Shown here piece after piece: positions 11,341 to 54,745 of a DNA stretch of 64,000 bases; within the stretch, counting starts at the first letter, position 1; each line of letters starts with the position of its first letter. This DNA comes from Lachnospiraceae bacterium (lineage in GTDB: Bacteria > Bacillota > Clostridia > Lachnospirales > Lachnospiraceae): positions 2,117 through 66,116 of the forward strand of contig JAAUZC010000022.1 in the NCBI GenBank assembly GCA_014804795.1. The letters run 5' to 3'. The notes under the pieces are model-generated. The model did no database searches. It saw only the letters and a list, made by a program, of their open reading frames with translations, and was not told the origin of the DNA. Position numbers and translations under genes: made by a program.

Positions 11341-12791
11341 TATGCCTGCTCTAAAAGCTCTATCCCCGCTCTGATCCGGGACAAAGACTCTTCCTTTCCG
11401 AGAATCTCCATAATTTCCGTGGCACCCGCCGGCGTCATCTGTTTGCCGGAGACGGCAGTACGCACAGGCCAGAGTACATAACCGTTCTTGCATCCTTTCT
11501 TTGCCACAAAATCACAGAGTGTCTGATAAAGCGCATCATTGCTGTAATCTTCCTGTTTTTCCAGGACAGGAAGCAACTCCTTTAAAACTTCTAAAGAAGA
11601 TTCCGTTGTCGTTTTCATCTTCTTGTGGGCATACATGGCCGCGTCATACGCCGGAAGCGTCTCAAAAAAGTCGATCAGAGCCGGAATATCCGGGAATATC
11701 TCAATTCTTGTTTTCACCATTTCCGCAATCTTTTGAAGATTCAGCGGCTTTTTGATCGTATCTGTCAGATAGGGAAGCGCCATCTCATAAAATCTGTCAA
11801 AATCCATCTGCTTGATATACTCGCCGTTCATCCATTTCAGTTTTGTATAATCAAAGACTGCCGGTGACTTGGACATATGACGATAATCAAAAGCTTCCGT
11901 CAGCTCCTGCAGCGTGAAAATCTCTCTGTTATCAGAAGGACTCCATCCGAGAAGCGCCACAAAGTTCACAACGGCTTCGGTCAGAAATCCCTGTTCGATC
12001 AGATCTTCATAAGAAGAATGGCCGCACCGCTTGGACAGTTTATTGTGCTCTTCATCGGTGATCAAAGGACAGTGCACATAAACCGGCACTTCCCAGCCGA
12101 ACGCTTCATAAAGCCTGTTGTATTTCGGGGAAGAGGAAAGATACTCATTGCCCCGTACAACATGGGTAATGCCCATCAGATGGTCGTCCACCACATTCGC
12201 AAAGTTATAGGTCGGATAGCCATCGGACTTGATCAGGATCATATCATCCAGTTCCGCATTATCTACCGAAATATCGCCGTATATCTCATCATGAAAAACA
12301 GTCTCGCCCTCCATCGGGTTATTCTGTCTGATCACATAGGGAATGCCCGCGGCAAGCTTCTCTTCCACTTCTTCTTTGCTCAGAGAAAGGCAATGCTTAT
12401 CATAGACATTGATTTCTTTCCCAGCCACAGTTCTTGTCAGACCCGCAAGTCTTTCCTTGTCACAGAAGCAGTAATATGCTTCTCCTTTTTCCACAAGTTT
12501 CTTCGCATATTCCAGATAAAGTCCGCTCTTTTGCCGATCGCTCTGCACATAGGGTCCTACGCCGCCGTCCTTATCAGGTCCTTCGTCATGTAAAAGCCCT
12601 GTCTTCTCAAGCGTCCTGTAGATGATGTCCACAGCTCCCTCCACCAGTCTCTCCTGATCGGTGTCCTCAATACGGAGAATAAAATCCCCGCCCTCATGTT
12701 TGGCGATCAGATAGGCATAAAGCGCCGTTCTCAAATTTCCCACATGCATCCGGCCTGTCGGGCTCGGAGCAAATCTTGTCCTTATTTTCAT
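11340..12791 (-). CDS. gltX: Glutamate--tRNA ligase
   Basis: [14 protein letters not shown] (HIGH), [21 protein letters not shown] (KMSKS). Confidence 0.97.
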
Positions 12792-39847: not shown

Positions 39848-39964
39848 AAAAATCCACCTTCTTCTGTCATTTTATGATGTCGGGAATATATCGTTTACCC
39901 CCGCGATGTTTATGCAACACTCTGCATCTTATGTTTCTGCAGATGTAACTTTCTTTTATTTATC

Positions 39965-40819
39965 TTATGCAATTCGAACGCCGACTACCACAAGCCGCCC
40001 TTCTGCTCCCTGTGACCTGTCACAGGTAGAAAGCGTTACCAGTTCATCACCGTAAACCGGCGTGAGCCCTGTATCATACATGGACATTTCCGCCATTGCC
40101 ACCATATTGGAGTTAAACTCTTCCTCAGAATTGGCGTCAATAAACTGATAATATTTGAAGGCGATCTCATCCTCAGCCAAAATCTGAGCCTGAAAAACAT
40201 AAACAACCTGATAAGTCCCTTTTTCATATATCGTATCAAACTGGAAAGTCTGATGCTCCTGATAAAAGGACTCATCGGTATATTTGTCAAGATGCCCAAA
40301 CATAGCTCCTGATTTCATATGATGCCCGTATATGATCAGATTTGTGGAACGGTCTATCACATCACAATCCTTATCCATGAAAATACATCCGTTTTTATCG
40401 GTATTCTGTCCAAAATCATGTGTCAGATAGTATTCATTGTCCACAGTCTGCATGACCGGGTAATCAATATTTGTATCGGCTATTTTAACCCATCCGATTA
40501 GTTTTTTGTTTCTATTAAATAAACTTTCATATTCAGGAAGAATATCAGGCACTTCCATCTCTTCTGTCCTGTGAATGACGATCTCTTCTTTTTTATCCGG
40601 TATCTTTTTTTGCCCTTCTTCTTTCAATTTGGCCCAGTTTTCACTGTTGGACTGGGTTCTGTGATTCATATAGGTATATACGGAAAAATACCCGAGACAG
40701 CCGCATGACAGTACAACACACAAAGCGATCAACGTTTTCCTTCTCTTTTCGCGCTTCTTCAGTTCCCTTTCTACAGCAGCTCTCAGCTTTTCGTCTTCTA
40801 TATCCTGCAGTCTGCTCAT
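39965..40819 (-). CDS. srtB: Class B sortase
   Basis: N-terminal TM anchor; IGWVKIADTNIDYPVMQ, IYGHHMKSGAMFG, VTLSTC, GRLVV. Confidence 0.9.
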   Translation of the reverse strand: MSRLQDIEDEKLRAAVERELKKREKRRKTLIALCVVLSCGCLGYFSVYTYMNHRTQSNSENWAKLKEEGQKKIPDKKEEIVIHRTEEMEVPDILPEYESLFNRNKKLIGWVKIADTNIDYPVMQTVDNEYYLTHDFGQNTDKNGCIFMDKDCDVIDRSTNLIIYGHHMKSGAMFGHLDKYTDESFYQEHQTFQFDTIYEKGTYQVVYVFQAQILAEDEIAFKYYQFIDANSEEEFNSNMVAMAEMSMYDTGLTPVYGDELVTLSTCDRSQGAEGRLVVVGVRIA

Positions 40820-40930
40820 TTTTGTCTCCTGCCATATTTCTCAGACATAATACTGCTAATATATCCTATTTTACTATATCTTGCATAAAATGCAAGTATT
40901 TTTACCACATCTGGAAAACTAATTCTTTCC

Positions 40931-40960
40931 AGTTCCTGTTTTTATACAAAAACAGGAACT
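40931..40960. terminator. Terminator-like hairpin downstream of the Rpn remnant
   Basis: AGTTCCTGTTTTT-ATAC-AAAAACAGGAACT perfect 13-bp inverted repeat. Confidence 0.6.
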
Positions 40961-41019
40961 ATCCAACATTACGACAATTTTCAAAAAACGCTGCAAAACA
41001 GACGGATGATTGCCTGAGT

Positions 41020-41693
41020 TTACAACGTTTTTGGTATAGTATTTATGTGTTTTTTCTTCTCCTCCTCAACCTCTTTCTGCAGTTCCTCTATCATATAATG
41101 TATTGTATTCCTGTCTAATATCCTCAATGCTTCCGAAAACATGTTTAACACCTCCTCCGGATTCTGCCTCAGCATAGCTATCTCTTTATAGATCTCTTCC
41201 AGCCACGGGTACTCCTGTATCAATTTCTCCGCATCTTCCAGATCTTCCGCAGCCAGCAAAGACAGCCATGCCGTCTGTTCACTCTTTTCTTTAGCATAAG
41301 GGAATCTTCTGAAAACGTCAAGGGTGACCAGACAATATTCCTGCAATAATTCCAGTTTCAGCCCTGTGTTAAAAACTGTTTTTCTTCCCCTTCACCCTTG
41401 CATACTGCCGCATCACAAGGTCTGAGGAATAACAGGACATACGTTCTGCCGGAAAAGCGTAACTCTGCTTCTGTATCTCAATGTTGATCAAAGACCCATC
41501 TTCTACTTCTCCCAATAAATCCATGATCAAGAGCGTATCTCCATCCATCATGCTGTCCTCATTCGGAAGAACACGGACAATCTTTACATCCATCCCCAGC
41601 AGGCTTGATACCAGCCTAGACAACCGGTCCGTATGAATATCGGGATGGAATATCCGCTTAAAAAACGGATCATTTTTCCACTGATTTATTCAT
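41020..41693 (-). pseudogene. Degraded Rpn / PD-(D/E)XK nuclease family (putative transposase) gene
   Basis: Frameshift after ATG 41693; core DPFFKRIFHPD...MDLLGEVEDGSLINIEIQKQSYAFPAERMSCY; then internal deletion/frameshift into KTVFNTGLKLELLQEYC...; C-terminal 108 codons (41020-41346) open. Confidence 0.85.
41023..41348 (-). repeat. Direct repeat copy 1 (326 bp; copy 2 at 52710-53035)
   Basis: Ungapped alignment at offset 11687; 16 substitutions counted by eye. Confidence 0.93.
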
Positions 41694-41750
41694 ATTTATA
41701 ATAGACATTCGCTTATTCTCACATGGAATTATTGTTATATAATTCCCTTT

Positions 41751-42551
41751 TCAAGATCCCAGACCGTTTCCCAGACTTCCTCCTGATAGCAGATATTGCT
41801 TTGCCCTCCTTTGAAGAGAAGTTTTTTCTGCATAGTCTGCCACACAGAAAAACCCTTGCCCAAAGATTCTCCATTCTGCTTCCCGTTCTTTGTAATCCAC
41901 CTTCACTATATCAAACAATTCCTGAAATCGCAGAATGTTGGATTCTTCCGGCAGAATTTCTTTAAGTCCTGAAAACAGAAGCCACGAATGGCAAATATAC
42001 TGCCGTTCTTTTCCAAACCTCCTGTATGCCTCTTCAATAGATTCCAGACATTGATCCCTCTCCAACGGCTCCCCTGCCGGTATATGGATATTGATAACCC
42101 TCTCTCCCTTCCTGATATGAACATTTTCTTCTGCTATCTCCTCCCCCGACTCCATTTCTTCATACTCCAGTCTGCCCAGCCTGAACAGCTTCATCTCTAA
42201 TCCGCGCCAGAACCAATCTTTCACATAGTATCCAAGTCCATATTTCCCTGTATCACGATAATATGTTTCGCACCAGATACTGATATCCCGAAATGTATCA
42301 AAAAAAATCCTGTCCTCAAGCCCCCTTTTTCGATACTCCTCATAAACTTCACAGGCAAACCTGCTGTAATAATATAAAAGCAGCTCTTCCGGTTCCTCCT
42401 GCTTACTTATCTTTTTATAAAATACCTCTCTGTCTTTCCTGAACAGTGCATGCATGGCAGCATAATTATCATCTTCTTTTTCTAACAGACTAAGTATCTC
42501 TGCCGCATCTTTCGGTATACCGATCTCTTTGCACAGTTCAATCAGTTCCAC
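41751..42551 (-). CDS. Acyltransferase-domain protein (N-acyltransferase N-domain + GNAT-like C-domain)
   Basis: FRLGRLEYE, INIHIPAGEPL, CHSWLL, TSLQR motifs. Confidence 0.65.
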   Translation of the reverse strand: MELIELCKEIGIPKDAAEILSLLEKEDDNYAAMHALFRKDREVFYKKISKQEEPEELLLYYYSRFACEVYEEYRKRGLEDRIFFDTFRDISIWCETYYRDTGKYGLGYYVKDWFWRGLEMKLFRLGRLEYEEMESGEEIAEENVHIRKGERVINIHIPAGEPLERDQCLESIEEAYRRFGKERQYICHSWLLFSGLKEILPEESNILRFQELFDIVKVDYKEREAEWRIFGQGFFCVADYAEKTSLQRRAKQYLLSGGSLGNGLGS

Positions 42552-43813
42552 TCTTTTCTCCCCCTGAACTCCCGAAAATCTATAACCTCTGATTTTAACC
42601 TGGACTCTTCCGCCGCCAGAGCCATCAAATGGCTGTCCACGGAAACAGAAACATCCGTCATGCTTACCCCGTTCCCGTCTTTGGCAACCAGCCCGATAAA
42701 CTCCCGCATTATCTCCATATCACTTCCGCAATGTCCGCCCCTTGGCGTATGTACCTTTATATACTCCGAATCCCCTGTCACAAAATCATCTACAACAATC
42801 TCCGCTTTTTCCATATTCCCCCGAATCTGCCCTTTCGTTCCCATAAGCAGTATCTCCCGGAAACATTCCGTTGAAAAAGCAGACATCATGAAATCCGCAC
42901 GCACGCCGTTTTCAAACTCAATATTGACAGTCTGATTATCACAGACATTGTTGTCGCAACGAAAAACACATCTCCCATAAGGCCCTGTCGATAATCGTTT
43001 CAGCACCTTTTTTGCGTTAAACTCCTCACTTACCGCGTAAACCAGATTATCTTCTTCCGCTTTCGGATGTTCCAGATAGAACCTCGGCGCATAATAAGGA
43101 CAGGAATCCGCATGCCTGCAGTTTTCCATGCAATACTCCGGCGCTCCTTCCGGCATATTTTCTTCCCTGAAAAAAGAAAGCGCCCCAAAAGACTGTATCC
43201 TCCGGCAGGGACTTCCCGCCAGCCACAACAGGATATCCATATCATGACAGCATTTTGCCATGATCACAGGACACGCCTCCTCATCATTGCGCCAGTTTCC
43301 TCTTACGAAACTATGGGCAAAATGCCAGAATCCCACATGCTCTGTATGTCTTATATTAATAAGTTTCCCGATTTTTTCTTCCTCTAAAAGGCTTTTAATC
43401 TTCCTGAAAAAAGGAGAATACCTGAGCACATGGCAGACTGATAAGATTCTGTGCCGTTCCAATGCTTCTCTTTCCATCAGCAGCATCTCTTTTCTGTCAG
43501 GAGACATCGGTTTTTCGCATAATACATGGTATCCCTGCCTCAGCGCCATCATCACCGGCCCGAAATGCTGATGATCCGGTGTGCATACAAGCACACAGTC
43601 AGCAAACCGCTCTCTGCCCAGAACCTCTTTGTAATCCTCAAAACAGAATTCTTCCGATATGCCATATTCTTCGGCAAATGCCTTTCTTCTTACCGGATCC
43701 GGCTCCGCCACCGCTTTTATCTGAAACGCCGCCGGATAAGCCGACGCATAAACCGCATATGCCTTCCGTCCCCTTAATCCCGCTCCAATCAAAATTCCTG
43801 TCACCTGATCCAT
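42542..43813 (-). CDS. Gfo/Idh/MocA family oxidoreductase
   Basis: LIGAGLRG, VCTPDHQH, LCEKPM, CHVLRYSPFF, KCCHDMD; start refined to ATG 43813. Confidence 0.9.
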   Translation of the reverse strand: MDQVTGILIGAGLRGRKAYAVYASAYPAAFQIKAVAEPDPVRRKAFAEEYGISEEFCFEDYKEVLGRERFADCVLVCTPDHQHFGPVMMALRQGYHVLCEKPMSPDRKEMLLMEREALERHRILSVCHVLRYSPFFRKIKSLLEEEKIGKLINIRHTEHVGFWHFAHSFVRGNWRNDEEACPVIMAKCCHDMDILLWLAGSPCRRIQSFGALSFFREENMPEGAPEYCMENCRHADSCPYYAPRFYLEHPKAEEDNLVYAVSEEFNAKKVLKRLSTGPYGRCVFRCDNNVCDNQTVNIEFENGVRADFMMSAFSTECFREILLMGTKGQIRGNMEKAEIVVDDFVTGDSEYIKVHTPRGGHCGSDMEIMREFIGLVAKDGNGVSMTDVSVSVDSHLMALAAEESRLKSEVIDFREFRGRKEWN

Positions 43814-43906
43814 ACCTCTTCCCCCTCTCCACATTGCATAACAAAATCATTTAGTTAAAGCCGTAACCAGCCGGAACGGAAATATAACTACATTGATAAC
43901 ATATCC

Positions 43907-45214
43907 TCACTCTTTCATCTGAATCTTCAACACCGTATCCTTTTCATCCGGCAACGGATATGTAAATACCGGATTCTCTCCAAAAGAGACGAATGCCACG
44001 TCCGGATATAAAACCGTATTCCACGCCTCCCCACGGTTCATCTCACTTCCGTCCGCAAGATAGATAACATTCTTAAGCCTTTCCGGCCTGATCCCATAAA
44101 GCGGCAGTGCCCCAAGGGGTTCTTCATACACATGTGCATATATCGTATCCCCTTTCTGTGTATATCTCCCCCATTCAGGCTTGGGCAGCTCAGATATCCC
44201 GCACCCGTAAATGCTTTCATTATTCTTCGCCATCCATATTCCAATTTCCTTTAAGATCTTTACGCTTTCTTCCGGTATATTCCCTCTGGCATCAGGTCCC
44301 ACATTCAAGATCATATTTCCGCCTTTACTCACGCATTCCACCAGTTTACGGATCAGCATCTTTGAAGTCTTATACTCATGGTCAAAATTGCAGTATCCCC
44401 AGTGGTTGTTCATCGTTGCACATAATTCCCAAGGGATCGGTTCCCCTTTGTCATCGCAAACACCTTTCGGCGGGATGATCTGCTCCGGGCTTGCGAAATC
44501 ACCGCTGTAGGGCAGCGGATGTTCTGTTGTGATGCTCCCATGATTGTCCCCGGCTCCCTCCAGCCGATTATCTATGATCACATCCGGCTGATAAGACCGT
44601 ACCATTTCAACCAGTTCCGTGGCCTTCCACTTTTCACCGGCCATATCATCATAGGAAAAATCAAACCACAACAGATCCAGCTTCCCATAGCCTGTCACCA
44701 GTTCTTTCACCTGTCCATGCATATATGCAAGATACCGGTCAAAATCTATTTTCTCCCCCTTATACTCCTCTTTGTTCCTCATCGGATGCTGGCGGTCTCC
44801 GTATTTGGGAAAATCCGGATGATGCCAGTCAATAACGGAATAATACAGTCCAACCTTTAATCCTGCCTCCCTGCAGGCATCCGTAAATTCCCGCACCAGA
44901 TCCTTTCCGGCTTTTGTATTCGTTGATTTATACTCTGTCAGCTTCGAATCAAATAAACAAAAGCCGTCATGATGTTTAGCTGTCAGGACAATATATTTCA
45001 TCCCCGCCTCTTTAGCCAGGCTCACCCACTTTTTCGGATCATAATCATACGGATCAAACTGCTCAAAATAGGTTCGGTATTCCTCTGCCGACATTTCCTT
45101 TTCTGACATCACCCATTCCCCACAGGCCGGAATGGCATAAAGACCCCAGTGAATAAACATCCCGAATCTGGCATCCATAAACCACTTTGTCCGTTCTCTT
45201 ATTTCCTGCTTCAT
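43907..45214 (-). CDS. GH29 alpha-L-fucosidase
   Basis: RFGMFIHWG, TAKHHDGF, GLYYS, LLWFD (nucleophile), NMILNVGPD; no signal peptide. Confidence 0.9.
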   Translation of the reverse strand: MKQEIRERTKWFMDARFGMFIHWGLYAIPACGEWVMSEKEMSAEEYRTYFEQFDPYDYDPKKWVSLAKEAGMKYIVLTAKHHDGFCLFDSKLTEYKSTNTKAGKDLVREFTDACREAGLKVGLYYSVIDWHHPDFPKYGDRQHPMRNKEEYKGEKIDFDRYLAYMHGQVKELVTGYGKLDLLWFDFSYDDMAGEKWKATELVEMVRSYQPDVIIDNRLEGAGDNHGSITTEHPLPYSGDFASPEQIIPPKGVCDDKGEPIPWELCATMNNHWGYCNFDHEYKTSKMLIRKLVECVSKGGNMILNVGPDARGNIPEESVKILKEIGIWMAKNNESIYGCGISELPKPEWGRYTQKGDTIYAHVYEEPLGALPLYGIRPERLKNVIYLADGSEMNRGEAWNTVLYPDVAFVSFGENPVFTYPLPDEKDTVLKIQMKE

Positions 45215-45297
45215 AAACCTTCTCCTCTCAGACTATCAGTTAATCTTAATAATAACATGCTCCGGCATTCGCACAAGCCCCGATATTTTTAACATAT

Positions 45298-46155
45298 CTA
45301 TCCTTTCACTGCACCACCGGACAATGCCTCAATAAAGAATTTACTGAAAATACAATATAACAGAACCGGCGGCAGAATGATGATCACCATAGCCGAAAAC
45401 AATCCGTTATAATTTGTATTAAAAGAAGTCGTAAAAGTGGAAAGCAGTGCCGGAACGGTCAGTTTATTCCGATCGATCAGCACAAGGGATGCCCAGTAAT
45501 ATTCATTCCAGTTATTTAAGAAAGCCAGTACGGCTGCTGTCATGATCCCCGGTCTTGCTATCGGGAAGATAACCTTTACCCATGTCTGCACATATCCGCA
45601 TCCGTCAATCCTCGCTGCCTCTTCCAAATCCCTCGGTATATTATCATAATAATTCTTGATCACGAAAAAGCTTACCGCAATCCCGCTGCAGGAATAGATC
45701 AGGATAAGCGCTGCCCTTGTATCGTATAAATGCAGGTTGTTGATCAGGTTATACACCGGATAAGTCAGGGCTGTTGCCGGAATGAACATCGTGGAATACA
45801 GCATGATATTCACTAACTTTTTCCCCTTGAATTCCATTCTTGCCACCACATAGGCTGACATAGAGATCATTACCACACTGATCAAAACGGATATACCCGC
45901 TATCAGCATGCTGTTTCCGAAATACCGCATCACATGCAGATCACGGAATGTTGAGATATACCCTTCCAGATAGATTGATTCAGGAAGCTGGAACCCCGGC
46001 CTCGCCAGCGGATCTTTTTTCAGGCTGGAGATTCCCAGCCACACCACCGGGACCAGGGATACTATGAGCGCCCATGCCAGACAGATATAAGTAAAAATAC
46101 GGGTTCCCCCGGATATACTTTTTACACTTTTTGTTTTCTTTTTGTCTCTGCTCAC
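45298..46155 (-). CDS. Carbohydrate ABC transporter permease (MalG-like)
   Basis: EAA loop LEEAARIDG, WNEYYW, six TM helices. Confidence 0.92.
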   Translation of the reverse strand: MSRDKKKTKSVKSISGGTRIFTYICLAWALIVSLVPVVWLGISSLKKDPLARPGFQLPESIYLEGYISTFRDLHVMRYFGNSMLIAGISVLISVVMISMSAYVVARMEFKGKKLVNIMLYSTMFIPATALTYPVYNLINNLHLYDTRAALILIYSCSGIAVSFFVIKNYYDNIPRDLEEAARIDGCGYVQTWVKVIFPIARPGIMTAAVLAFLNNWNEYYWASLVLIDRNKLTVPALLSTFTTSFNTNYNGLFSAMVIIILPPVLLYCIFSKFFIEALSGGAVKG

Positions 46156-47120
46156 GATGCCCTACCTCCTCGATTATTTTTCTTTTTGAAAGATACGCCG
46201 TAAAGCAGATTGACCGCCGCAATAATAATCATTCCTGCCAGGATCTGTACCACCGCAACAGAATTGGCTCGGCCGAACTGCGTCCTCGGACTGGTGATCG
46301 CCAGTTCACGGATCACATAACTGATACTGTATGTTCCCGCCGCCCCTTTGGTCAGGAAATATACTTCGTTATACAAAAGGAAACCGGATGTCGCGGCAAG
46401 AACGGAAACGGTTCTTAAAGTTCCCTTGATCATCGGAATCGTAACATACCGGTCCTGTCTCAGTCCGCTGGCCCCGTCCAGCATAGCCGCCTCCCTGATC
46501 TCCTCCGGAACTGCCATGATATTGCCGAGGATCATCAGTGTTGTTGTCCCTGTGAAAAATATGTATGCTGCGGTCATCGCTATAAATGCCGGGCCTTTTA
46601 ACAGCAGGATATTATCTGTAAATTCTTTCTTAAAAATACGGATCACGGGATTAATAATCCCGTAGGAAGGGTTATAAAGCTGCAGGAAGATGATTCCCAT
46701 GGCCGCTGTCGATACCATGTTCGGGATAATGTAGATATTACGGATAATCTTAACGCCTTTCACCTTCCGGGACAGTGCAAGGGCAATAGCTGTTGCGATA
46801 GGTATCTGCAAAACTACCCCCAGCAGTGCCCATACTGCTGAATTTCGAAGTGCCTCCCAGAAATACGGATATGTGTGAAAGATATAGTCGTAGTTATTCC
46901 ACATATCTGCAAATCCAAAAAATTCCGGAGCTGTAATATTCGTATAATCCCATTTGCAGAACGACGTGATAAAAACTGTAATGATCGGATAAAGATAAAA
47001 AATACAGAATGCCGCCATCGTCGGTGCAAGAAACAGGATGATAAATCCCGAACGCCTTCTCCGGAGCCTGCTTTTATTTTTATTGTTTTCTTTTAACTCT
47101 GTCAATATAAACACCCCCAT
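46152..47120 (-). CDS. Carbohydrate ABC transporter permease (MalF-like)
   Basis: EAA loop IREAAMLDGAS; overlaps next gene by 4 nt. Confidence 0.9.
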   Translation of the reverse strand: MGVFILTELKENNKNKSRLRRRRSGFIILFLAPTMAAFCIFYLYPIITVFITSFCKWDYTNITAPEFFGFADMWNNYDYIFHTYPYFWEALRNSAVWALLGVVLQIPIATAIALALSRKVKGVKIIRNIYIIPNMVSTAAMGIIFLQLYNPSYGIINPVIRIFKKEFTDNILLLKGPAFIAMTAAYIFFTGTTTLMILGNIMAVPEEIREAAMLDGASGLRQDRYVTIPMIKGTLRTVSVLAATSGFLLYNEVYFLTKGAAGTYSISYVIRELAITSPRTQFGRANSVAVVQILAGMIIIAAVNLLYGVSFKKKNNRGGRAS

Positions 47121-47128
47121 AACAAGAA

Positions 47129-47152
47129 GGGAAAGGAAACTACTCCTTTCCC
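47129..47152 (-). promoter_or_regulatory. Intercistronic stem-loop after the solute-binding protein gene
   Basis: GGGAAAGGA/TCCTTTCCC inverted repeat; typical mRNA-stabilising or attenuating hairpin of ABC operons (inference). Confidence 0.55.
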
Positions 47153-47168
47153 CTCTATAAAACCCCTG

Positions 47169-48530
47169 TTATCCGATCAAAGCGATCAGTTCTTTCTGAA
47201 GCTGTTCAAACCGTGCATCAATATCTGTCCCGGATACTGCACATTCCATTAAAGCATTGATAATCGCGCTATTTACATCAGCCCCCCAGGAATAGTTCAT
47301 ATCAATTACAACAATGTCTGCACTGTTTACCTGAGAACATGCTTCTGCCAGTTTCATGGTTATGCTGTTGCCGCTGCTCTCCGCAAGCGCATTCAGATCT
47401 ACTGTTACGTTGCACGGATTTGCCTGCACATCCGTAAATATTTTCTCTTGAACTTCCGCGCTTGTCATATACTGAATGAACTCAAGAGCCAATGCCGTTT
47501 TCTCTTCACTCATGCCGTTTGCAATTGCCAGACCACCGCCTGCCGATGCAATAGCAACATTCCCCGGGAAAAGGGCGGGTTCTATCGCGTCTGCAAGTGA
47601 TTCATCAATGCCGCTCGCATTCCACACGCCGTTGAACAATACTCCTACTGTGCCGTTTGTATTAAATTCAGCCATCAGATTTCCGTTGTCCTCTGTTGTA
47701 TGCTCGGAACCGTTTTCCTGATCCAGTTTTGCCACTGTCTTAAAAGCTTCCGCAAATTCTTCTGAATTGATGATATCTACTGTCAATTCGGATTCCAGCA
47801 TTTCTCTTCCCGCTTCTGTGGAAGCCAGAATGGAATTTACCATTTTGCTGGAGCCCTGTCCTGCTATGTATCCATAGCTGCCGTCATTTAACCCCCTGAT
47901 TTTTGCCATTGCCTCACCAAAAGATTCCCAGTCAGTTAATGAATCTGCAGATACACCCGCTTTTTCCAATATATCAGCATTGTACCAGATTCCCCGGCTT
48001 TCAATCTGATCATGTACCAGATAAATATGTCCGTCTACATCATGCTGTGTATAATTTATACCAACTGCATCCTGCAGGCCGTTTTCATCAATATACGGTT
48101 TCAGGTCATAGATAAGCCCCTGCTGTATTGCTGCCAGTGAAGCTCCTGCATTTCCCAGATCCACGATATCCGGGAAATTCCCGCCTGCCACCTGCGCGCT
48201 TACAATTTCATCTCTGTTTTCCACAGCGATCGGTTTAAATATCACATTCCCGTCCGCATGAGCCGCTGCAAATGCATCATAAATATCCCTCATGGCCTGT
48301 GCTGCCGCCCATTCACTCTCATCCTGATAATAGCCATGATAAAATTCCAGCACTTCTTTATCCCCGGAAGCCTCTTCCTGAACCGCTGCCTCCTCTGTGT
48401 CAGTATCCGCATCAGCTTCATTGGTCACATCTGTTTCCGCGCCGGTTTCCACACCGCTGTTCCCGCAGCCCGTCAATGCAGCAACACATAATACAGCAGC
48501 CATAAGAATGCTCACTGTTCTTTTTTTCAT
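47169..48530 (-). CDS. ABC transporter sugar-binding lipoprotein
   Basis: Lipobox ALTGC; FNGVWNAS, ALEFIQYMTS; start refined to ATG 48530. Confidence 0.9.
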   Translation of the reverse strand: MKKRTVSILMAAVLCVAALTGCGNSGVETGAETDVTNEADADTDTEEAAVQEEASGDKEVLEFYHGYYQDESEWAAAQAMRDIYDAFAAAHADGNVIFKPIAVENRDEIVSAQVAGGNFPDIVDLGNAGASLAAIQQGLIYDLKPYIDENGLQDAVGINYTQHDVDGHIYLVHDQIESRGIWYNADILEKAGVSADSLTDWESFGEAMAKIRGLNDGSYGYIAGQGSSKMVNSILASTEAGREMLESELTVDIINSEEFAEAFKTVAKLDQENGSEHTTEDNGNLMAEFNTNGTVGVLFNGVWNASGIDESLADAIEPALFPGNVAIASAGGGLAIANGMSEEKTALALEFIQYMTSAEVQEKIFTDVQANPCNVTVDLNALAESSGNSITMKLAEACSQVNSADIVVIDMNYSWGADVNSAIINALMECAVSGTDIDARFEQLQKELIALIG

Positions 48531-48680
48531 ATCTCTTTCCTCCTTTATTCTGATTCTGCACTGTTTCTTTCTGTGCATTTTTAATATTAACACGATAATT
48601 TTACATTTATATTTGTGCAATTTGAATGAATTCTATTTGTTTTAAGATGCATTGTGTTTACTTTTTCTCTGATTAAAATT

Positions 48681-48750
48681 GTAAAATATTTACTATAAGT
48701 CAATATTTTTTTATTTTATGGTAAAATATTTACCCAAGGTCAATATTTTT
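48681..48750. promoter_or_regulatory. Two 30-bp direct repeats (GTAAAATATTTAC-N5-GTCAATATTTTT), probable regulator binding sites
   Basis: Copies at 48681-48710 and 48721-48750, identical at 25 conserved positions flanking a variable N5; located between regulatory and transport operons. Confidence 0.65.
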
Positions 48751-48844
48751 CACCAAGAAAAATACCGCAAAAGCATTCATTATCAAGTCTGCTTTTACGG
48801 TATTTTGTTCATTATTCCAGTTCCGCAGATATCTGCTGTATTTA

Positions 48845-50137
48845 TTAGTTGTCATCCCGCAAACTGTTTATCAAATGCCGGCCTGACATATCTCCCCGGA
48901 GCACCTCCATGATATTTTCCGTAAACTTTTCCTTCCTATCCACACCCCACATATTTTCCGGTGTATCGATCTTTCTTTCTGCATTCAAAACAAGCGTTGC
49001 CGCCTGATACATTCTCGGCTTTTCTACACTGTATCTCTCAAGAGAGACCTGGGGATTCGACGGGATCTGTTCCGTCTCCTCCAGTATCCTTGTCTGTACC
49101 TCTTCGCTTAACATATATTTTAAAAATCTTACCGATGCCTCTTCTTTCTCCGCCGCATTGCTCTTTCCCAGTACATAGCCCATACATGCCGATTCACAGG
49201 AAATTGCTGTTCCTGATGCACTCGGCAGCAGGGCGTATTTTACATCCAGTTCCTCCCCGATCATAGGCGCTCCCCAGACGCCGTTAATATATATGGCCAG
49301 TTTTCCGTCATTAAAAAGACTCGTTTCGTCCCGATAAGTATAATTCATTTCATCAGAAGCAGAGTATTTATAAATCTCTTTAAGCTGCTTCAACACATCC
49401 TCCATTTTATCCTCATCTACAAGCAGTCTGTGCTCCTGCGGCGACCAGTTCAGTCCTCCCTCACTGTCTGCAAGTACATGGTCCGCAAAATACAGATATC
49501 CTTCCGAGGTAACTTTATGCGGTTTAATTCCTGTTCCCTCAGAAACCGACCAGTTTTCCAGTGTTTCACACATTTCCATAAATTCTTCCCAAGTAGCAGG
49601 CAGTTCCCGGATTCCAGCCTGCTCCAGGATTTCCTCATTATACCAGTATCCTCCGCTAAGTGATAGTACTGCTACAACATTATACAGCTCTCCTTCATCC
49701 GTCGTCCAGGATTTCAGATTTGTCTCCGATATATCAGATGCCAGCTCTTCATCTTCTTCCAGATAAGGCATCAGGTCTATCAACATATCATTCCTTACCA
49801 TAAAATCATAAGTCTGGTTATATCCTATCCCTTCAAAATTCACAATATCCGGTATATCGCCCACCATGATCATATCTTCCACTTTCCGGAGCATTTCTTC
49901 CCTGGTGGGCATGGAGATAAGCCTTAATTCAATATCCGGATTTTCGGTCTGGAACTCCTCGTATATTTTTCGCATTGCCACATGATCCGCCTCTATGCCT
50001 CCCCAGCCGTGGACCATTGTTATGGTCACTTTATTTTCCTGCTCCTTTCCGCAACCGGCAATGATACATGTCAGTACCAGCAAAATACCTATGATCCATA
50101 CCCTTTTATATTTCTTCCATGCCGTTTCTTTTTCCAT
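48845..50137 (-). CDS. Second sugar-binding lipoprotein, coupled to the two-component system
   Basis: Lipobox IIAGC; YINGVWGAP, FLKYMLS; overlaps response regulator 3' end. Confidence 0.85.
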   Translation of the reverse strand: MEKETAWKKYKRVWIIGILLVLTCIIAGCGKEQENKVTITMVHGWGGIEADHVAMRKIYEEFQTENPDIELRLISMPTREEMLRKVEDMIMVGDIPDIVNFEGIGYNQTYDFMVRNDMLIDLMPYLEEDEELASDISETNLKSWTTDEGELYNVVAVLSLSGGYWYNEEILEQAGIRELPATWEEFMEMCETLENWSVSEGTGIKPHKVTSEGYLYFADHVLADSEGGLNWSPQEHRLLVDEDKMEDVLKQLKEIYKYSASDEMNYTYRDETSLFNDGKLAIYINGVWGAPMIGEELDVKYALLPSASGTAISCESACMGYVLGKSNAAEKEEASVRFLKYMLSEEVQTRILEETEQIPSNPQVSLERYSVEKPRMYQAATLVLNAERKIDTPENMWGVDRKEKFTENIMEVLRGDMSGRHLINSLRDDN

Positions 50138-50861
50138 TTCTGAACTCCTTCGGGGACAGCCCTGTCTGTTTCTTAAATACTTTTGAAAAATAACCCGCGT
50201 TATCGAATCCTACCGCGTCCGATATCTCATAAGTCTTCATTTCCGTATTCTGCAGAAACCCCTTTGCCGCTTCGATCCGTTTTTTTACTATCACATCAAA
50301 CAGGTTCATTCCTGTTTTTTCCTTATACAACCGGCTCAGATAGCTTCTGTTTGCATGAAGCTCATTCGCAATCTCATCCAGCGATATCCTCTTCATATAA
50401 TTTTGTTCTATGTACTGTTCTATCTGCCTCTGCAGTGTTGCCGTTGTCTCAAGCTTTGCATTTTTCCCCTCAAGTTCTTCATGAAACCGTCGGAGCTCCC
50501 CGACCGCCTTTTGTACAGCCTTCGGCAGTTCCTCAAGAACAGATACCTTCAATACATATTCACAGGCACTGTACCGGATCGCTTTTTTTGCATATTCAAA
50601 TTCCGAGTACGCGGTCAGCAGTATGACCGGTATCTCCGGACAGGTCTCATATACATACCGGCATACCTCCAGTCCGTCCATTACCGGCATCCGGATATCT
50701 GCGATAATGATATCCGGGCGTTCCGCTTCTATCTGCATGATCAGTTCTTTTCCATTACTGCACACCGAGCAAAGACTGCAGTCCATCTTTTCCCACGATA
50801 TCAGTTTATAGAGCGCTTCCCGGATATATGCTTCATCATCTGCCGCTATTACTTTCCACAT
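50106..50861 (-). CDS. YesN-like response regulator (REC + AraC HTH)
   Basis: IAADDE, IIADIRMPVMDG, LTAYSEF, AVGFDNAGYFSKVFKK; start ATG 50861 after GAGGTG. Confidence 0.92.
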   Translation of the reverse strand: MWKVIAADDEAYIREALYKLISWEKMDCSLCSVCSNGKELIMQIEAERPDIIIADIRMPVMDGLEVCRYVYETCPEIPVILLTAYSEFEYAKKAIRYSACEYVLKVSVLEELPKAVQKAVGELRRFHEELEGKNAKLETTATLQRQIEQYIEQNYMKRISLDEIANELHANRSYLSRLYKEKTGMNLFDVIVKKRIEAAKGFLQNTEMKTYEISDAVGFDNAGYFSKVFKKQTGLSPKEFRNGKRNGMEEI

Positions 50862-52650
50862 TTTCTTCACCTCTGTCTACCGGAAGGACAATTTCTATCT
50901 TCGTCCCCTTCCCTTTTTCTCCCCAAATTTCCATACGAAAACGGTTTCCGTATAAAATCTCCAGAAGATTTCGCGTATTCGCCAGCCCTATATGGGTATG
51001 GAACTTCCGGAACGCCTCTTCCTGTCCTTCTTCCTGCACAGCTTTCTCAGACATCTTTCCAGTTTTTTCACCGGCTTCTTTTCGATCCACCTCTTCCGGA
51101 TCGAATCCGACTCCGTCATCTTCCACCTGTATATGCAGCATCCTCTCTCCTTGTTCTTCCTGTTCCCATAATGCCACCTTAACCCATCCTTCTTCCTCTT
51201 TGGGCTCCAGCCCGTGGGACACCGCATTTTCCACAAGAGGTTCGATCAACAGTCTCGGAATCAGATCCCGGTTTATACTCTCATCCGCGATATCTATCTC
51301 ATAGGAAATCTTTTCCTGAAAACGGCTGTGTTGGAGATACAGATAAAACCTCACGATCTCCAGTTCTTCCGATACTCTGATCATGATCTCCCCTTCACGG
51401 AATATCTTCCCATGCACCAGCCCCGAAAATGCCTGGAGCCCTTCGTACAGCTCCTCATTCCCTGCCATTTTTGCCTTCAATCCCAGCATAGTCAATACAT
51501 TAAACTGGAAATGGGGATTGATCTGAGCCTGCAGGTATTTTACCTGCAGCCTTCCCGCAAGGATCTCCTTTTCATACACCTGTGTGATCAGATGTTTGAT
51601 ATGGTCTGCCATTTCATTGAATACGGCCCCAATATCATGAAATTCCTGAATCGGTGAATCTCCCATCCGGACATCAAAATTCTGATCACCAAAGGCCTTA
51701 ATGCTCTCACTCAATCCTGACATCGGTTTTGTAAAACGATAACTTGTACTGAATGCCAGAAAAACCGTCAATAGCAATACAAGAATAAACCCCGCGCCAA
51801 ATACGAACACCGTAGGTTTCAGCAGCGCAAATATATTTTCTCTTCCCGCCGACACCACAGAATATATTCCAAAGCCGCAGGAATCCACATATCCCAGCAT
51901 ATCCGGCTCATCGATGATCTTTCGTCCCTGCCAGTTACTGCCAATCCTCTGCAAACTGTCTATACTATCCTGTTCCCCGTAAGCATCCAGTACTTCGCCG
52001 CCCTCATCCAGTATCAGCCATGCCCCGTTTTTATAGGAAGCCGTCTCTCCCAGCACCATCTCCACAGCCTCACTGCTGATCTCCGCAATGCATATCCCGC
52101 GTTCCTGCATATGATCGTCATAGATCCTGAAACAGAGATTAATATTCTCTGTGTCCGTATATGTCTTATATTGAAGTTCCTGCCCCTTAAACCTCTGGTG
52201 CAATTCCGCATATTTTTCCATTTCAAGCTGCTGAAACTCCACCGTAGACGCATAGTAACGCTCATAAACATATTCATCACAATTATTAAAAAGATAGACG
52301 CTGATAACGAACGGAAGCTGACGATTGATCGTATTGCGGTCCGAAAACAGCTTCATACAGTAAGAAAGCTGTTCCTCCGCCACACTCTCATCATAATCCG
52401 CCTTGTCAAAAAAATCGTCCAGCATCACATTATGCCGGATAGATATGGCACCGTCTTCGATAAACTGCATATGGGATTGCAGCTGCTGGCTTGTATTCTG
52501 CAACACATACTGTATATCCTCTCTTGTATTCTCATAAAAAAAAGAGAAAAAAACATACAGAATCGCTATGCAGGCCAATAATAAGGTGCAGACAGATGTC
52601 ATAACTGTCAATATGGTAATCTCTGTCCGCAGTGTTCTCTTTTTTTTCAT
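50836..52650 (-). CDS. YesM/LytS-like sensor histidine kinase
   Basis: Two TM helices, HAMP, LQAQINPHFQFNVL, PLVENAVSHG, VEDDGVG, HIGLAN, GTKI; start ATG 52650 (alternative 52668). Confidence 0.92.
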   Translation of the reverse strand: MKKKRTLRTEITILTVMTSVCTLLLACIAILYVFFSFFYENTREDIQYVLQNTSQQLQSHMQFIEDGAISIRHNVMLDDFFDKADYDESVAEEQLSYCMKLFSDRNTINRQLPFVISVYLFNNCDEYVYERYYASTVEFQQLEMEKYAELHQRFKGQELQYKTYTDTENINLCFRIYDDHMQERGICIAEISSEAVEMVLGETASYKNGAWLILDEGGEVLDAYGEQDSIDSLQRIGSNWQGRKIIDEPDMLGYVDSCGFGIYSVVSAGRENIFALLKPTVFVFGAGFILVLLLTVFLAFSTSYRFTKPMSGLSESIKAFGDQNFDVRMGDSPIQEFHDIGAVFNEMADHIKHLITQVYEKEILAGRLQVKYLQAQINPHFQFNVLTMLGLKAKMAGNEELYEGLQAFSGLVHGKIFREGEIMIRVSEELEIVRFYLYLQHSRFQEKISYEIDIADESINRDLIPRLLIEPLVENAVSHGLEPKEEEGWVKVALWEQEEQGERMLHIQVEDDGVGFDPEEVDRKEAGEKTGKMSEKAVQEEGQEEAFRKFHTHIGLANTRNLLEILYGNRFRMEIWGEKGKGTKIEIVLPVDRGEENVESNSGR

Positions 52651-52664
52651 CCTTTCTCCGTTCT

Positions 52665-53035
52665 TCATTCAATTAAACCGTTGAAAACAAATGGGTAATC
52701 CGATGTTTTCAACGGTTTTGGTATAGTATTTATATGTTTTTTCTTCTCCTCCTCAACCTCTTTCTGCAGTTCCTCTATCATATAATGTATTGTATTCCTG
52801 TCCAATATCCTCAGCGCTTCCGAAAACATGTTTAACATCTCCTCCGGATTCTGCCTCAGCATAGCTATCTCTTTATAAATTTCTTCCAGCCACGGATACT
52901 CCTGTATCAGTTTTTCCGTATTTTCCAAATCTTCCACAGCCAGCAAAGACAGCCATGCAGTCTGTTCACTCTTTTCTTTAGCATAAGGGAATCTTCTGAA
53001 AACGTCAAGGGTGACCAGACAATATTCCTGCAATA
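52665..53035 (-). pseudogene. Isolated 3' fragment of an Rpn / PD-(D/E)XK gene (direct repeat copy 2 at 52710-53035)
   Basis: LQEYCLVTLDVFRRFPYAKEKSEQTAWLSLL...KKHINTIPKPLKTSDYPFVFNGLIE*, about 95% identical to 41023-41348; no nuclease core upstream. Confidence 0.85.
52675..52718. other. Perfect 15-bp-stem hairpin at the cassette boundary
   Basis: AAACCGTTGAAAACA / TGTTTTCAACGGTTT. Confidence 0.8.
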
Positions 53036-53062
53036 TTCCTACAATATTTCTCCAAAAAGCGA

Positions 53063-53089
53063 ACCCTTTTTTATTGCCCGCATAAGATA
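53063..53089 (+). promoter_or_regulatory. Putative sigma-K-type promoter
   Basis: AC-16-CATAAGATA fits the Bacillus sigma-K consensus AC-N16-CATAnnnTA; short motif, so a chance match is possible. Confidence 0.4.
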
Positions 53090-53118
53090 AACCATAAAAA
53101 CAAACGGAGGTAACTAAC

Positions 53119-53355
53119 ATGAGTGATTTAACAGCTACAAACTGCGGATGCGGCAACATGGGCAGAAGCGGATGCGGATGCAGCAACATCATCTGGATCA
53201 TCCTTCTCCTGTCTCTGTGCGGAGGCAACGGTAATGATGACTGCGGATGCAACGACAACGGCTTATTTGGCCTTGGCGGCAATGGCGGCTGCGAATGCAT
53301 CATCTGGATCTTACTGTTGTTAAGCTGCGGCGGATGCGGTAATGGATTGTTCTAA
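53119..53355 (+). CDS. Small Cys/Gly-rich protein with two IIWI(I/L)LLL hydrophobic repeats; putative spore coat/exosporium protein
   Basis: 78 aa, 11 Cys, 19 Gly; GGAGG SD; own terminator. Confidence 0.75.
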   Translation: MSDLTATNCGCGNMGRSGCGCSNIIWIILLLSLCGGNGNDDCGCNDNGLFGLGGNGGCECIIWILLLLSCGGCGNGLF

Positions 53356-53364
53356 AAATCCGGT

Positions 53365-53391
53365 AAAGGGGCAGCCAAAAGCTGCCTCTTT
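53365..53391 (+). terminator. Intrinsic terminator
   Basis: AAAGGGGCAGC-CAAAA-GCTGCCTCTTT. Confidence 0.7.
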
Positions 53392-53467
53392 ATATAAAAA
53401 CCGTCTTTTTTCAGATATTTTCTCCCGCATCCACTGTGCCATCAGGGTGCAGCATCCAAATTTTCGG

Positions 53468-53496
53468 GTATGAAGCCTGTTTTTGCCGCATACATT
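53468..53496 (+). promoter_or_regulatory. Putative sigma-E-type promoter
   Basis: GTATGAA-14-CATACATT fits the sigma-E -10 CATACAnT with the expected 14-nt spacer; one -35 mismatch. Confidence 0.4.
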
Positions 53497-53561
53497 GATA
53501 AAACAAAGCATAAAGCAGTCTTTGGTATCAACATCCAAAATTTTCAGATGGAGCCGGAACA

Positions 53562-54230
53562 TTGTGTGATTCTATGGAAACGATCAAAAACGAACAAATA
53601 TATGCCTTTGACAGTTTATATACGACCAATCATATTCAAATGCTGAAGATACTACTGCCTTGTTTAAATCCTCCCCTTCAAAAAAATCTGGCATTGTACA
53701 TCAAATTTTTAGAGCTTCGTTATACTATTTCGTTTCTGAGCACACACCCCTATGTCATCAGCGGATGCGGTTTTGATAAAGAACACAGAGAGCAGGAAAT
53801 TCCGATAAATGACCTGCTCCCTTACCTCACACCGCAGGAAGCCGAAAACTTTAAGCAGCTTCAAAAAAGCATGGATATGATGAAACAGTTTTCCGCCATG
53901 CAGAAAAATATGGAAGCTCTAAAGGGCATCCTGCCTGAAGGTATGGATTTCGAATCGCTGTTCGGGCAGATGATGGGCAATAGCCGCCCCGGCAGCGACG
54001 ATCACGGCCGGGCTGAGTCCGGAACAAATGATACTTTCCGTAAAACCGATACACCAAATGCTGATCCGGCGGCCAAAGCATCCCCTGTATCAGCAAAACC
54101 TTTTTCCGAAAACAACATTCTTCAAAATATGATGCGGGGTACATCCGGCGGCGACATTTTGAAAAATATGATGTCCGACTCCCAGATGGAACTGTATCAG
54201 AAATTTAATGAGCGCTTCCGGAATATATAG
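53562..54230 (+). CDS. Hypothetical protein
   Basis: 222-aa ORF, M/Q/K-rich helical segments; start uncertain (GTG 53562 or ATG 53574). Confidence 0.7.
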   Translation: MCDSMETIKNEQIYAFDSLYTTNHIQMLKILLPCLNPPLQKNLALYIKFLELRYTISFLSTHPYVISGCGFDKEHREQEIPINDLLPYLTPQEAENFKQLQKSMDMMKQFSAMQKNMEALKGILPEGMDFESLFGQMMGNSRPGSDDHGRAESGTNDTFRKTDTPNADPAAKASPVSAKPFSENNILQNMMRGTSGGDILKNMMSDSQMELYQKFNERFRNI

Positions 54231-54299
54231 GCAGGACATAAATATCAAAATAAATCCATATAGAAAGTTAAGCAGGTATGCCTGCCGGAAAGGACAATT

Positions 54300-54608
54300 A
54301 TGGCAAATAAAACCGATAACCAAAACGATTATTTATCCTCCGGTGAATGGATGCGCGACAGCGCGCTCTCTCACATTCCCCATTCAAAACTGGAATTTTT
54401 ACAGATCATGCTCTTTGAGAGCCGTAAATTGAAGCAGGATGAAATGCTTCCGTTTTTTATGTCCGTTATTAAAGTCAGCCGCGAAAAAAATATCACTTTC
54501 ACAGAAGAAGAAATGGATTCCATTTTAGAAGTCTTAAAAGAACACTCCACCCCCGATGAACTGACCCGCATGAATCAGATCATGCAGATGCGGAAGTCCA
54601 TGGGATGA
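54300..54608 (+). CDS. Hypothetical protein
   Basis: 102-aa ORF with GAAAGGA SD; helical. Confidence 0.75.
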   Translation: MANKTDNQNDYLSSGEWMRDSALSHIPHSKLEFLQIMLFESRKLKQDEMLPFFMSVIKVSREKNITFTEEEMDSILEVLKEHSTPDELTRMNQIMQMRKSMG

Positions 54609-54614
54609 TGAAAC

Positions 54615-54745
54615 CGTTACTATTCACAGTCCCTCCACCCGCATTCACAAAATCAGCCAGCAGAGCTGCCTGTCGCTGCTTCGCAGCTTGATATTTTGTT
54701 CATGCGGGCGGAGTTCCGGTTTCCATGTGACTATGAATAGTAACG
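54615..54745. repeat. 131-bp nested palindrome (REP/MITE-like) between convergent genes
   Basis: Outer arms CGTTACTATTCACAGTC / GACTATGAATAGTAACG (16/17 paired), inner 11/12 and 7-bp stems, apical GCTGC-TTC-GCAGC; abuts the leuS stop codon. Confidence 0.7.

Follow-up and report, generated by a model that had tools for sequence, protein, structure and literature searches.

A nine-gene carbohydrate cassette lying between two direct copies of the 3′ part of a PD-(D/E)XK nuclease gene was analyzed in a 64,000-nucleotide stretch of Lachnospiraceae bacterium DNA (GenBank assembly GCA_014804795.1, contig JAAUZC010000022.1, positions 2,117 to 66,116), hereafter referred to as the window. The cassette and the flanking nuclease pieces form an islet at 40932-53041 (12,110 bp), located in the short spacer between a Cys/Gly-rich gene and the sortase gene srtB. 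All coordinates are positions in the 64-kb window, and the islet and both repeat copies lie on the minus strand. Listed from the srtB side onward, the locus holds the following features, where residue numbers refer to P0242, an intact 380-aa relative of the nuclease.

39965-40819, minus strand: srtB (sortase), the conserved right-hand neighbour of the insertion site.
40919-40931, minus strand: chromosomal motif TGGAAAGAATTAG on the srtB side, from which onward the sequence aligns with the empty sites of the related species L006 and L044.
40931-40960, minus strand: second hairpin, AGTTCCTGTTTTTGTATAAAAACAGGAACT, the srtB-side end of the inserted block.
40977-41032, minus strand: terminator hairpin of repeat copy A, a 14-bp stem followed by UUUUUUG (-20.8 kcal/mol, z -4.14).
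41018-41353, minus strand: repeat copy A, the 3′ part of the nuclease gene (residues ~190-286 plus the tail HINTIPKTL) with an open 108-codon frame.
41362-41377, minus strand: internal-deletion joint and T-run frame shift, from comparison with the intact relatives P0242 and L104.
41381-41673, minus strand: N-terminal part of the copy A gene with the PD-(D/E)XK core (residues 57-153 at 41671-41381; D...EIQK motif at 41468-41479).
41674-52668, minus strand: nine-gene cassette with a predicted role in fucoside uptake and utilization, 10,995 bp, its bounds taken from related cassettes.
41751-42551, minus strand: NAT_N/GNAT_C protein gene.
42542-43834, minus strand: Gfo/Idh/MocA oxidoreductase gene.
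43907-45214, minus strand: GH29 α-L-fucosidase gene (PF01120, 323 bits).
45298-46155 and 46152-47120, minus strand: two permease genes (BPD_transp_1 domain matches).
47169-48530, minus strand: gene for the substrate-binding protein of the transporter.
48845-50137, minus strand: gene for a sensor-type substrate-binding protein.
50106-50870, minus strand: AraC-type response regulator gene (Response_reg and HTH_18 domain matches).
50836-52650 or 52668, minus strand: sensor histidine kinase gene (His_kinase and HATPase domain matches).
52669-52716, minus strand: terminator-type hairpin of repeat copy B, a 15-bp stem (-20.9 kcal/mol, z -3.45) whose T-run is weakened to UUUAAUUG.
52705-53041, minus strand: repeat copy B, a solo 3′ part of the PDDEXK_2 gene (residues ~199-286 at 53042-52779, plus the tail HINTIPKPL).
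53042-53054, minus strand: chromosomal motif TGGAGAAATATTG on the Cys-rich-gene side, a second and imperfect copy of the motif at 40919-40931.
53119-53355, plus strand: Cys/Gly-rich ORF (open reading frame) of 78 codons, the conserved left-hand neighbour, divergent from the islet.

The flanking copies had been described, in a reading of the sequence alone, as direct repeats of 326 bp with 16 substitutions, no indels and an offset of 11,687, and exactly these values were obtained for 41023-41348 versus 52710-53035. A BLAST comparison widened the repeat to 41018-41353 and 52705-53039 at 94.6% identity, and the window held no other long repeat except the internal repeats of the leucine-rich repeat (LRR) gene downstream of srtB. 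The homologous unit itself reaches ~40977 in copy A and ~52669 in copy B; since each copy, made up of the end of the nuclease ORF, closes with the ORF's own terminator hairpin, the repeat is really ~375 nt long. In both hairpins the 5′ arm is formed by the last codons and the 3′ arm lies past the end of the 326-nt repeat; the loops are unlike, and folding revealed that the stems differ by compensatory changes. An apparent 3′ boundary common to both copies (41018 and 52705) and to a third copy in the public runs X2 and X4 was considered as the end of an element and rejected, because folding shows homology continuing through the hairpin, whose variable loop explains why the third copy seemed to share that boundary.

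Both copies possess a derived tail (HINTIPKTL in A and HINTIPKPL in B) at the place where the remaining family members run on into a long coiled coil, from 41051 and 52738, respectively. Because they share this tail and the terminator hairpin, copies A and B are sisters and not independent paralogues; they are 95% identical to each other versus at most 87% to any database copy outside this species. The 5′ end of copy B lies directly at the insertion joint, and its hairpin stops 18 nt ahead of the start codon of the histidine kinase gene. With UUUAAUUG in place of UUUUUUG, this hairpin is a terminator without a U-run close to that start, and the two-component genes may be transcribed by read-through from within copy B, where a candidate promoter-like site lies at 52804-52777; promoter consensus scans scored no better than shuffled sequence.

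Gene and domain matches bore out that nine carbohydrate genes on one strand, together with a broken 5′ part of the nuclease gene, are enclosed between the repeats. The cassette unites a glycoside hydrolase with a dedicated transporter and a dedicated regulator, all co-oriented, as in a glycan-utilization locus, and its predicted function is self-regulated uptake and utilization of α-L-fucosides. In public gut runs, related cassettes of 90-95% identity part from the window exactly at 52668 (X3 and X5) and at 41674 (X3), which sets the cargo to 41674-52668, with both nuclease pieces abutting it directly. The same nine genes occur in the same order in L085 between unrelated large genes and secA-prfB (substrate-binding protein 89% identical in aa, ~80% in nt), and truncated or eight-gene versions occur in other contexts in L093 and L095. 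No nuclease remnants were found beside the cassettes of these three loci. The operon is a conserved Lachnospiraceae module that is differently placed in different species. The occurrence of the cassette elsewhere without such flanks does not support the repeat-based interpretation of the sequence-only reading, nor does the finding that only 1 of 80 metagenomic nuclease loci holds another copy inside 10 kb, although a spacing of 11.7 kb would escape this range; bracketing by two copies is no habit of the nuclease family.

Two details within the cassette were also recorded. Two 33-nt direct repeats of 85% identity with a 40-bp spacing (48678-48710 and 48718-48750) lie in the 224-bp spacer between the genes of the sensor-type and the transporter substrate-binding proteins, where the AraC-type response regulator could plausibly bind, ahead of the ATP-binding cassette (ABC) transporter and fucosidase operon. 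At ~41760, in the NAT_N/GNAT_C gene, the window has one G fewer in a G-run than L002, L089, L090 and X1, resulting in a product of 266 aa versus 277 aa; either this gene, the last of the cassette, has undergone a strain-specific frameshift near its 3′ end, or the base was missed in sequencing.

The insertion site was compared across relatives by a leuS-anchored scan with one genome per species, which yielded 80 Lachnospiraceae loci. The three closest species, L005, L006 (= Bacterium 1XD8-76) and L044, with leuS at 93% aa identity, share the gene order prfC-leuS-p102-p222-CysRich-srtB-LRR, and their gaps between the Cys-rich gene and srtB measure 1183, 162 and 727 bp, respectively, with neither a cassette gene nor a nuclease gene in any of them. 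The gap of L006 contains nothing, that of L005 an unrelated 279-aa gene, and that of L044 an unrelated insert of ~530 bp, which carries a 65-codon ORF. Some 25 more distant Lachnospiraceae keep srtB near leuS, p102, p222 and the Cys-rich gene with the block absent, and no nuclease remnant was found at the empty sites of the ~28 related species. The sequence-only reading had taken the cassette to be accessory, which is upheld between close species by conserved flanks around an interval uninterrupted by the block in L005, L006 and L044, and by the same state in many others. It had also proposed to look for empty sites with one nuclease copy, and none was found. Since the block is absent and the sites are nuclease-free in the relatives, the islet is a gain in the window's lineage, and since the empty sites carry no nuclease copy at all, they represent ancestral states rather than products of an excision between A and B.

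Regarding the flanking genes, the Cys/Gly-rich ORF (MSDLTATNCGCGN...CGGCGNGLF) has two hydrophobic stretches and is kept beside p222, p102 and leuS in many Lachnospiraceae; a look-up for it gave no match, since the public collection does not annotate this ORF as a gene. Exact-protein look-ups with srtB and the 222-aa neighbour retrieved only conspecific contigs, all with the same arrangement. The LRR surface-protein gene downstream of srtB (34718-39847, 1709 aa) contains internal tandem repeats, especially at 35678-35870 and 37124-37342, and one of its stretches is 82% identical between strains that are otherwise 98% identical, indicating that the surface protein varies quickly.

Both joints could be placed to the base. 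The chromosome stops with ...GGGTTCGCTTTTTGGAGAAATATTG on the Cys-rich side, where copy B opens immediately with TAGGAATATTGCAGGAATATTG; on the srtB side, the second hairpin (40960-40931) is followed by TGGAAAGAATTAGTTTTCCAG..., which is alignable to L006 and L044. A chromosomal motif of ~13 nt flanks the islet, with 8 of 13 positions identical (consensus TGGAA..A.TT.G), and the uninterrupted site of L006 has it once only, as TGGAATTATTTG. The unrelated insert of L044 lies at the same point, flanked by TGGAAAAAATTAG and TGGAAAGAATTAG, which are identical at 12 of 13 positions. A sequence similar to the motif, CTGGAATTATTGCAGGAATATTG, occurs in the nuclease gene itself where copy B is truncated. 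Judging from these sequences, the site is read as a hairpin-prone spot at which insertions recur and whose joint is of the microhomology type; alternatively, the flanking 13-nt motif would represent a short target duplication or an att-like core. A different insert occupies the spacer in each of three related species (the window, L044 at 14130-14690 and L005 at 11300-12150), and the spacer looks like a recurrent insertion hotspot. Base composition is no marker of the islet, the GC content being 0.446 versus 0.448 and 0.46 for the flanks. In line with the earlier claim, no integrase, tyrosine or serine recombinase or insertion sequence (IS) was found in the islet or within 10 kb on either side, a tRNA scan not having been run.

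The nuclease gene was then compared with its relatives. The full-length relatives P0242, P0252 and P0255 match PF12784 (PDDEXK_2) with 44.6-55.1 bits against a cut-off of 27.4, over profile positions 4-223, and the 84-codon N part in the window scores 27.1 bits, just under that cut-off. Neither PF04754 nor the NCBIfam Rpn models gave a match at E ≤ 0.01 with the N part, the C part or the three full-length relatives. Because PF12784 was matched instead, the name Rpn originally given to the gene is valid only at the level of the PD-(D/E)XK superfamily and the overall architecture, not as family membership. A PD-(D/E)XK core with the D...E-x-Q/K motif is present (IMDLLGEVEDGSLINIEIQK, encoded at 41468-41530) in a gene that is broken. 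To our knowledge, no nuclease or recombination activity is known for this PF12784 subfamily.

Locus A comprises residues 57-153 (41671-41381) and residues 190-286 (41382-41092) in different frames, and it lacks three parts, namely residues 1-56, 36-38 internal codons and the coiled-coil tail. The loss of the internal codons and the frame shift split the gene into two reading frames, and the N part, which ends at residue 57 exactly at the cassette border, is decaying: in L089 and L090 a TAG nonsense codon at 41472 replaces the Q codon of the EIQK motif, and strain X1 has an additional 118-bp deletion (41522-41639). These lesions are confined to the nuclease part, and the C-terminal frame is open in all strains. 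As a pseudogene in every strain, the nuclease cannot act now.

Copies of the nuclease subfamily were absent from the 1.5 Mb of leuS-anchored loci of the 80 related species, and in gut metagenomes the family is multi-copy, with a depth of up to 137 versus ~6 for the cassette. As homologues were mostly short, stand-alone C-terminal genes were considered as the rule in this family; this was discarded as a contig-end artefact, since intact members of 345-389 aa exist and ~50 of the 80 metagenomic loci are near full length. Two other arrangements of the family were noted. In another species (L097-L102, 5655-6426), a member located between an iron/cobalamin-type ABC cluster and a phosphotransferase system/GH1 cluster is split into ORFs of 107 and 141 aa by a deletion that removes the nuclease core, a state fixed in at least six samples. 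In P0244 (434 aa, from a representative library), a member lies in-frame behind the N-terminal 146 residues of a methyltetrahydrofolate:corrinoid methyltransferase-like protein; judging from this fusion, a nuclease gene cut at the LPVTYDPFF motif evidently landed within another gene.

Variation within the species was followed in the few assemblies that span the site (the window, L001/L004, L002, L089, L090 and run X1). Every one of them carries copy B, the cassette, copy A and srtB; over flanks and islet, L089 and L090 align collinearly with the window (98.2% identity), and the same structure occurs in independent assemblies from at least four samples. The anticipated excision or amplification did not appear: no A × B deletion, circle or tandem joint was seen in the conspecific assemblies or in runs X1-X5, the latter being low-depth Logan contigs that cannot show absence. 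Presence/absence polymorphism was likewise not found among the spanning assemblies.

The repeats do recombine, however, by gene conversion. In an alignment of seven repeat copies from four strains, the A copy of L089 is B-type throughout the variable sites between alignment positions 73 and 238, a tract of at least 166 nt that includes three variants private to the B copies of L089 and L090, whereas its ends stay A-type; this mosaic indicates conversion of A from B. The A copy of L090 has a shorter B-type tract (113-163), and a third patch at the same place is found in the P0002/L103 allele. The A-B differences range from 8 in L089 to 20 in the window, a divergence of 2.4-6% depending on the strain. 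No crossover between the repeats, which would delete or duplicate 11.69 kb, was observed. L103 (positions 1-897; ENA ERZ27276820) is an allele of locus A with the same tail, hairpins and srtB promoter, but its N part passes the cassette joint. This N part is 75-90% identical to that of the window, in contrast to a 3′ half of 98-100% identity, and at its 5′ end it matches the intact relative L104 with 95% identity; no near-identical longer contig for it was found.

All these observations are best accommodated by a lineage-specific islet whose repeats are the scar of a history involving more than one unit, rather than a target duplication or att site, and which is stably inherited as a usable recombination substrate; we assign this reading a probability of roughly 0.6. 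Formally, the islet is one unit of cassette, nuclease gene lacking residues 1-56 (Δ1-56) and terminator (52668-40977, 11,692 bp), placed after the last 373 nt of another unit. Such a unit would once have been a tandem duplicate, concatemer or circle, or would have been built by template switching, and a piece slightly over one unit long would have been fixed here by non-homologous or microhomology joining. Alternatively, a full tandem duplicate could later have been trimmed by deletion, and in the template-switch variant copying would have run from the gene end through the cassette and back into the gene. The most fitting view of the repeats is that they arose as a by-product when the block was put together and offer a usable, so far unused substrate for its loss or amplification; in agreement with the earlier argument from their divergence, they are not a target-site duplication. 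Classical integration into the 3′ end of a gene was rejected, since there the fragment lies downstream of the full gene and here it lies upstream.

Several points weigh against this reading. It needs a concatemer or circle that has never been observed, or two steps, duplication and an 11-kb deletion. The divergence between A and B (2.4-6%) exceeds that between strains (1.8%), which makes the event old and its intermediates lost. As the N part of L103 passes the joint between cassette and copy A, the nuclease gene could predate the cassette, and this favours the crossover origin discussed next. In addition, with a handful of conspecific assemblies and low-depth contigs, rare deletion or amplification alleles are possible.

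That origin, the portable homology of the sequence-only reading, would start from a resident nuclease gene between the Cys-rich gene and srtB, into whose 3′ part a circle or fragment with a related nuclease gene and the cassette integrated by homologous recombination, leaving a hybrid copy on each side; the upstream copy would later have lost its 5′ part, and the repeats could delete or amplify the cassette. The A-B conversion proves that the cell uses the 335-nt homology, the mosaic of L103, with its divergent N part and near-identical 3′ half, is the pattern a crossover would leave, and the high copy number of the family in gut metagenomes would suit such a route. It nevertheless appears unlikely, because the empty sites of ~28 related species all lack a nuclease copy, the 5′ part of copy B is A-like and not L103-like, contrary to what a resident-derived copy predicts, neither a one-copy cassette-free allele nor a circle or tandem joint was found, and an additional deletion ending exactly at the chromosomal motif would still be needed. 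Two parts of the original idea thus stood, namely gain of the block without an integrase and exchange between the repeats, while no evidence was obtained for gain, loss or amplification mediated by the repeats.

A further explanation, compatible with the other readings, concerns the 108-codon C-terminal frame, which would be kept in A and B as a product of its own resembling an RpnS antitoxin or immunity protein, the copy upstream of the cassette being under selection and the homology a side effect. Its substitution pattern is suggestive: A and B differ by 11 synonymous and 5 non-synonymous changes (ratio of non-synonymous to synonymous rates, dN/dS, ~0.10), copy B of the window differs from that of L090 by 4 and 1, respectively, and 15 of 22 in-frame variable sites over all strain copies are synonymous when codon positions are read by eye. 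This bias could also come by conversion from intact paralogues; the variable sites form clusters in a mosaic pattern. Decay affects the nuclease part, every strain has an open C part, and an independent solo, 5′-truncated C part in human-gut contigs (L172, L177, L180 and L183, ~9995-10470) shows a ratio of 8.5 synonymous to 3.5 non-synonymous changes. A precedent exists in E. coli, where RpnS blocks RpnL and stand-alone rpnSs genes occur (Zhong et al., 2023, PMC10400941). On the other side, the family is PF12784 and not PF04754, AlphaFold modelled the C part with low confidence (predicted local distance difference test, pLDDT, 67.6) and a fold search of the PDB with this model gave no match, the locus was found in no public RNA run, a convincing ribosome-binding site is absent before the TTG at 41346 or 53033, and the cognate toxin is dead at this locus. 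A sequence search of the PDB with the C part returned coiled-coil noise only. The C-terminal frame may, by analogy, be a functional RpnS-like small gene, yet as an account of the repeats we regard this as doubtful. The human-gut fragment is one locus in four samples, and the number of its DKDSQLA-type heptad repeats varies, recalling the repeat variation of RpnS.

Less probable again, and put forward only tentatively, is a direct role of the nuclease in capturing the cassette: while still intact, its breaks followed by primer-template switching, as has been proposed for RpnA, would have copied the 3′ end and terminator, then the cassette, then the gene from residue 57, and the C-terminal frames would have been kept as RpnS-like immunity proteins. 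If this were true, an Rpn-like gene that is partly duplicated around foreign DNA would be a scar diagnostic of nuclease-promoted, integrase-free capture. A chance neighbourhood of two paralogues from an abundant family, or an assembly artefact, is hardly credible, for although this multi-copy family does break metagenome assemblies into many short contigs of high depth, the reading is already contradicted by the shared derived tail and terminator, by 95% identity versus at most 87% outside the species, by zero copies in 1.5 Mb of related loci and one in 80 loci with two copies, and by recurrence of the structure in independent assemblies of at least four samples.

Gut Lachnospiraceae vary greatly in their glycan-utilization modules, and since most of these modules have no integrases or IS, their movement is poorly understood. 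The present locus provides a cleanly delimited case: its two joints are placed to the base, sister species have empty sites, the cassette recurs at other loci, and the flanking repeats demonstrably exchange sequence. Should PD-(D/E)XK "putative transposase" genes turn out to be partly self-duplicated in this way repeatedly, genomes could be searched for integrase-free capture by this mark, and horizontal transfer would be linked to the Rpn-like nucleases of Firmicutes. If the duplication is no more than a scar, the islet is an accessory one of the ordinary kind and serves mainly as a natural system in which repeat-mediated loss and amplification can be measured in a gut commensal. Two leads are of more interest: PF12784 C-terminal frames may have been retained in an RpnS-like manner, and insertions recur at one point between the Cys-rich gene and srtB.

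Compared with known systems, the flanking gene shares with the recombination-promoting Rpn/YhgA-like nucleases of E. coli (PF04754), including RpnA, for which D63, E82 and Q84 mutants were described, the type of D...E-x-Q motif (EIQK here) and a multi-copy, sporadic and not autonomously mobile occurrence (Kingston et al., 2017, PMC5350276), but it belongs to PF12784 and is a pseudogene in every strain. In E. coli, C-terminal domains of Rpn proteins are also made separately as RpnS, which blocks RpnL, additional stand-alone rpnSs genes exist, and a C. difficile rpn gene likewise expresses an RpnS (Zhong et al., 2023, PMC10400941). Common to that system and ours are a C-terminal domain as a separate coding unit, additional copies of this part near the parent gene, and a varying repeat number in the helical tail of the nuclease relatives; the differences are that the family is another one, that an antitoxin role here would be assigned by analogy, and that a cargo operon separates the extra copy, 11.7 kb away, from the nuclease gene.

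IS26-type translocatable units and composite transposons resemble the islet in having cargo between direct copies of a gene annotated as "transposase", a unit-plus-a-bit geometry and a target motif on both sides. They differ in that the islet lacks both an intact transposase and terminal inverted repeats, one of its flanks is 5′-truncated, the copies are 2.4-6% diverged, the flanking motif matches at 8 of 13 positions, and bracketing is not recurrent in the family. A composite transposon or IS26-like unit was therefore rejected, both flanking copies being defective and terminal inverted repeats not being found: a first search of 38000-56000 gave no inverted repeats of at least 30 nt, none were seen by eye at the ends, and another search returned the 30-nt hairpin at 40931-40960. 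An integrase-borne genomic island was also rejected, as all ORFs of the islet are accounted for and no recombinase lies within 10 kb on each side (with no tRNA scan run). Closer in form are remnants of tandem duplication or amplification and template-switch insertions of the kind attributed to microhomology-mediated break-induced replication (MMBIR), which share a partial second unit end on the other side and microhomology-like GGAATATTG-type repeats (53020-53054), although here the event is old and a full-tandem intermediate is unseen. As for the cargo, Gram-positive polysaccharide and glycan utilization loci with three-component regulators (histidine kinase, AraC-type response regulator and sensor substrate-binding protein) have the same make-up as the GH29 enzyme, ABC importer and own sensor encoded here, for which fucosides are the predicted substrate. 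The cassette is likewise patchy among gut Lachnospiraceae and in itself nothing unusual; it is the flanks that are unusual in this well-delimited accessory glycan islet.

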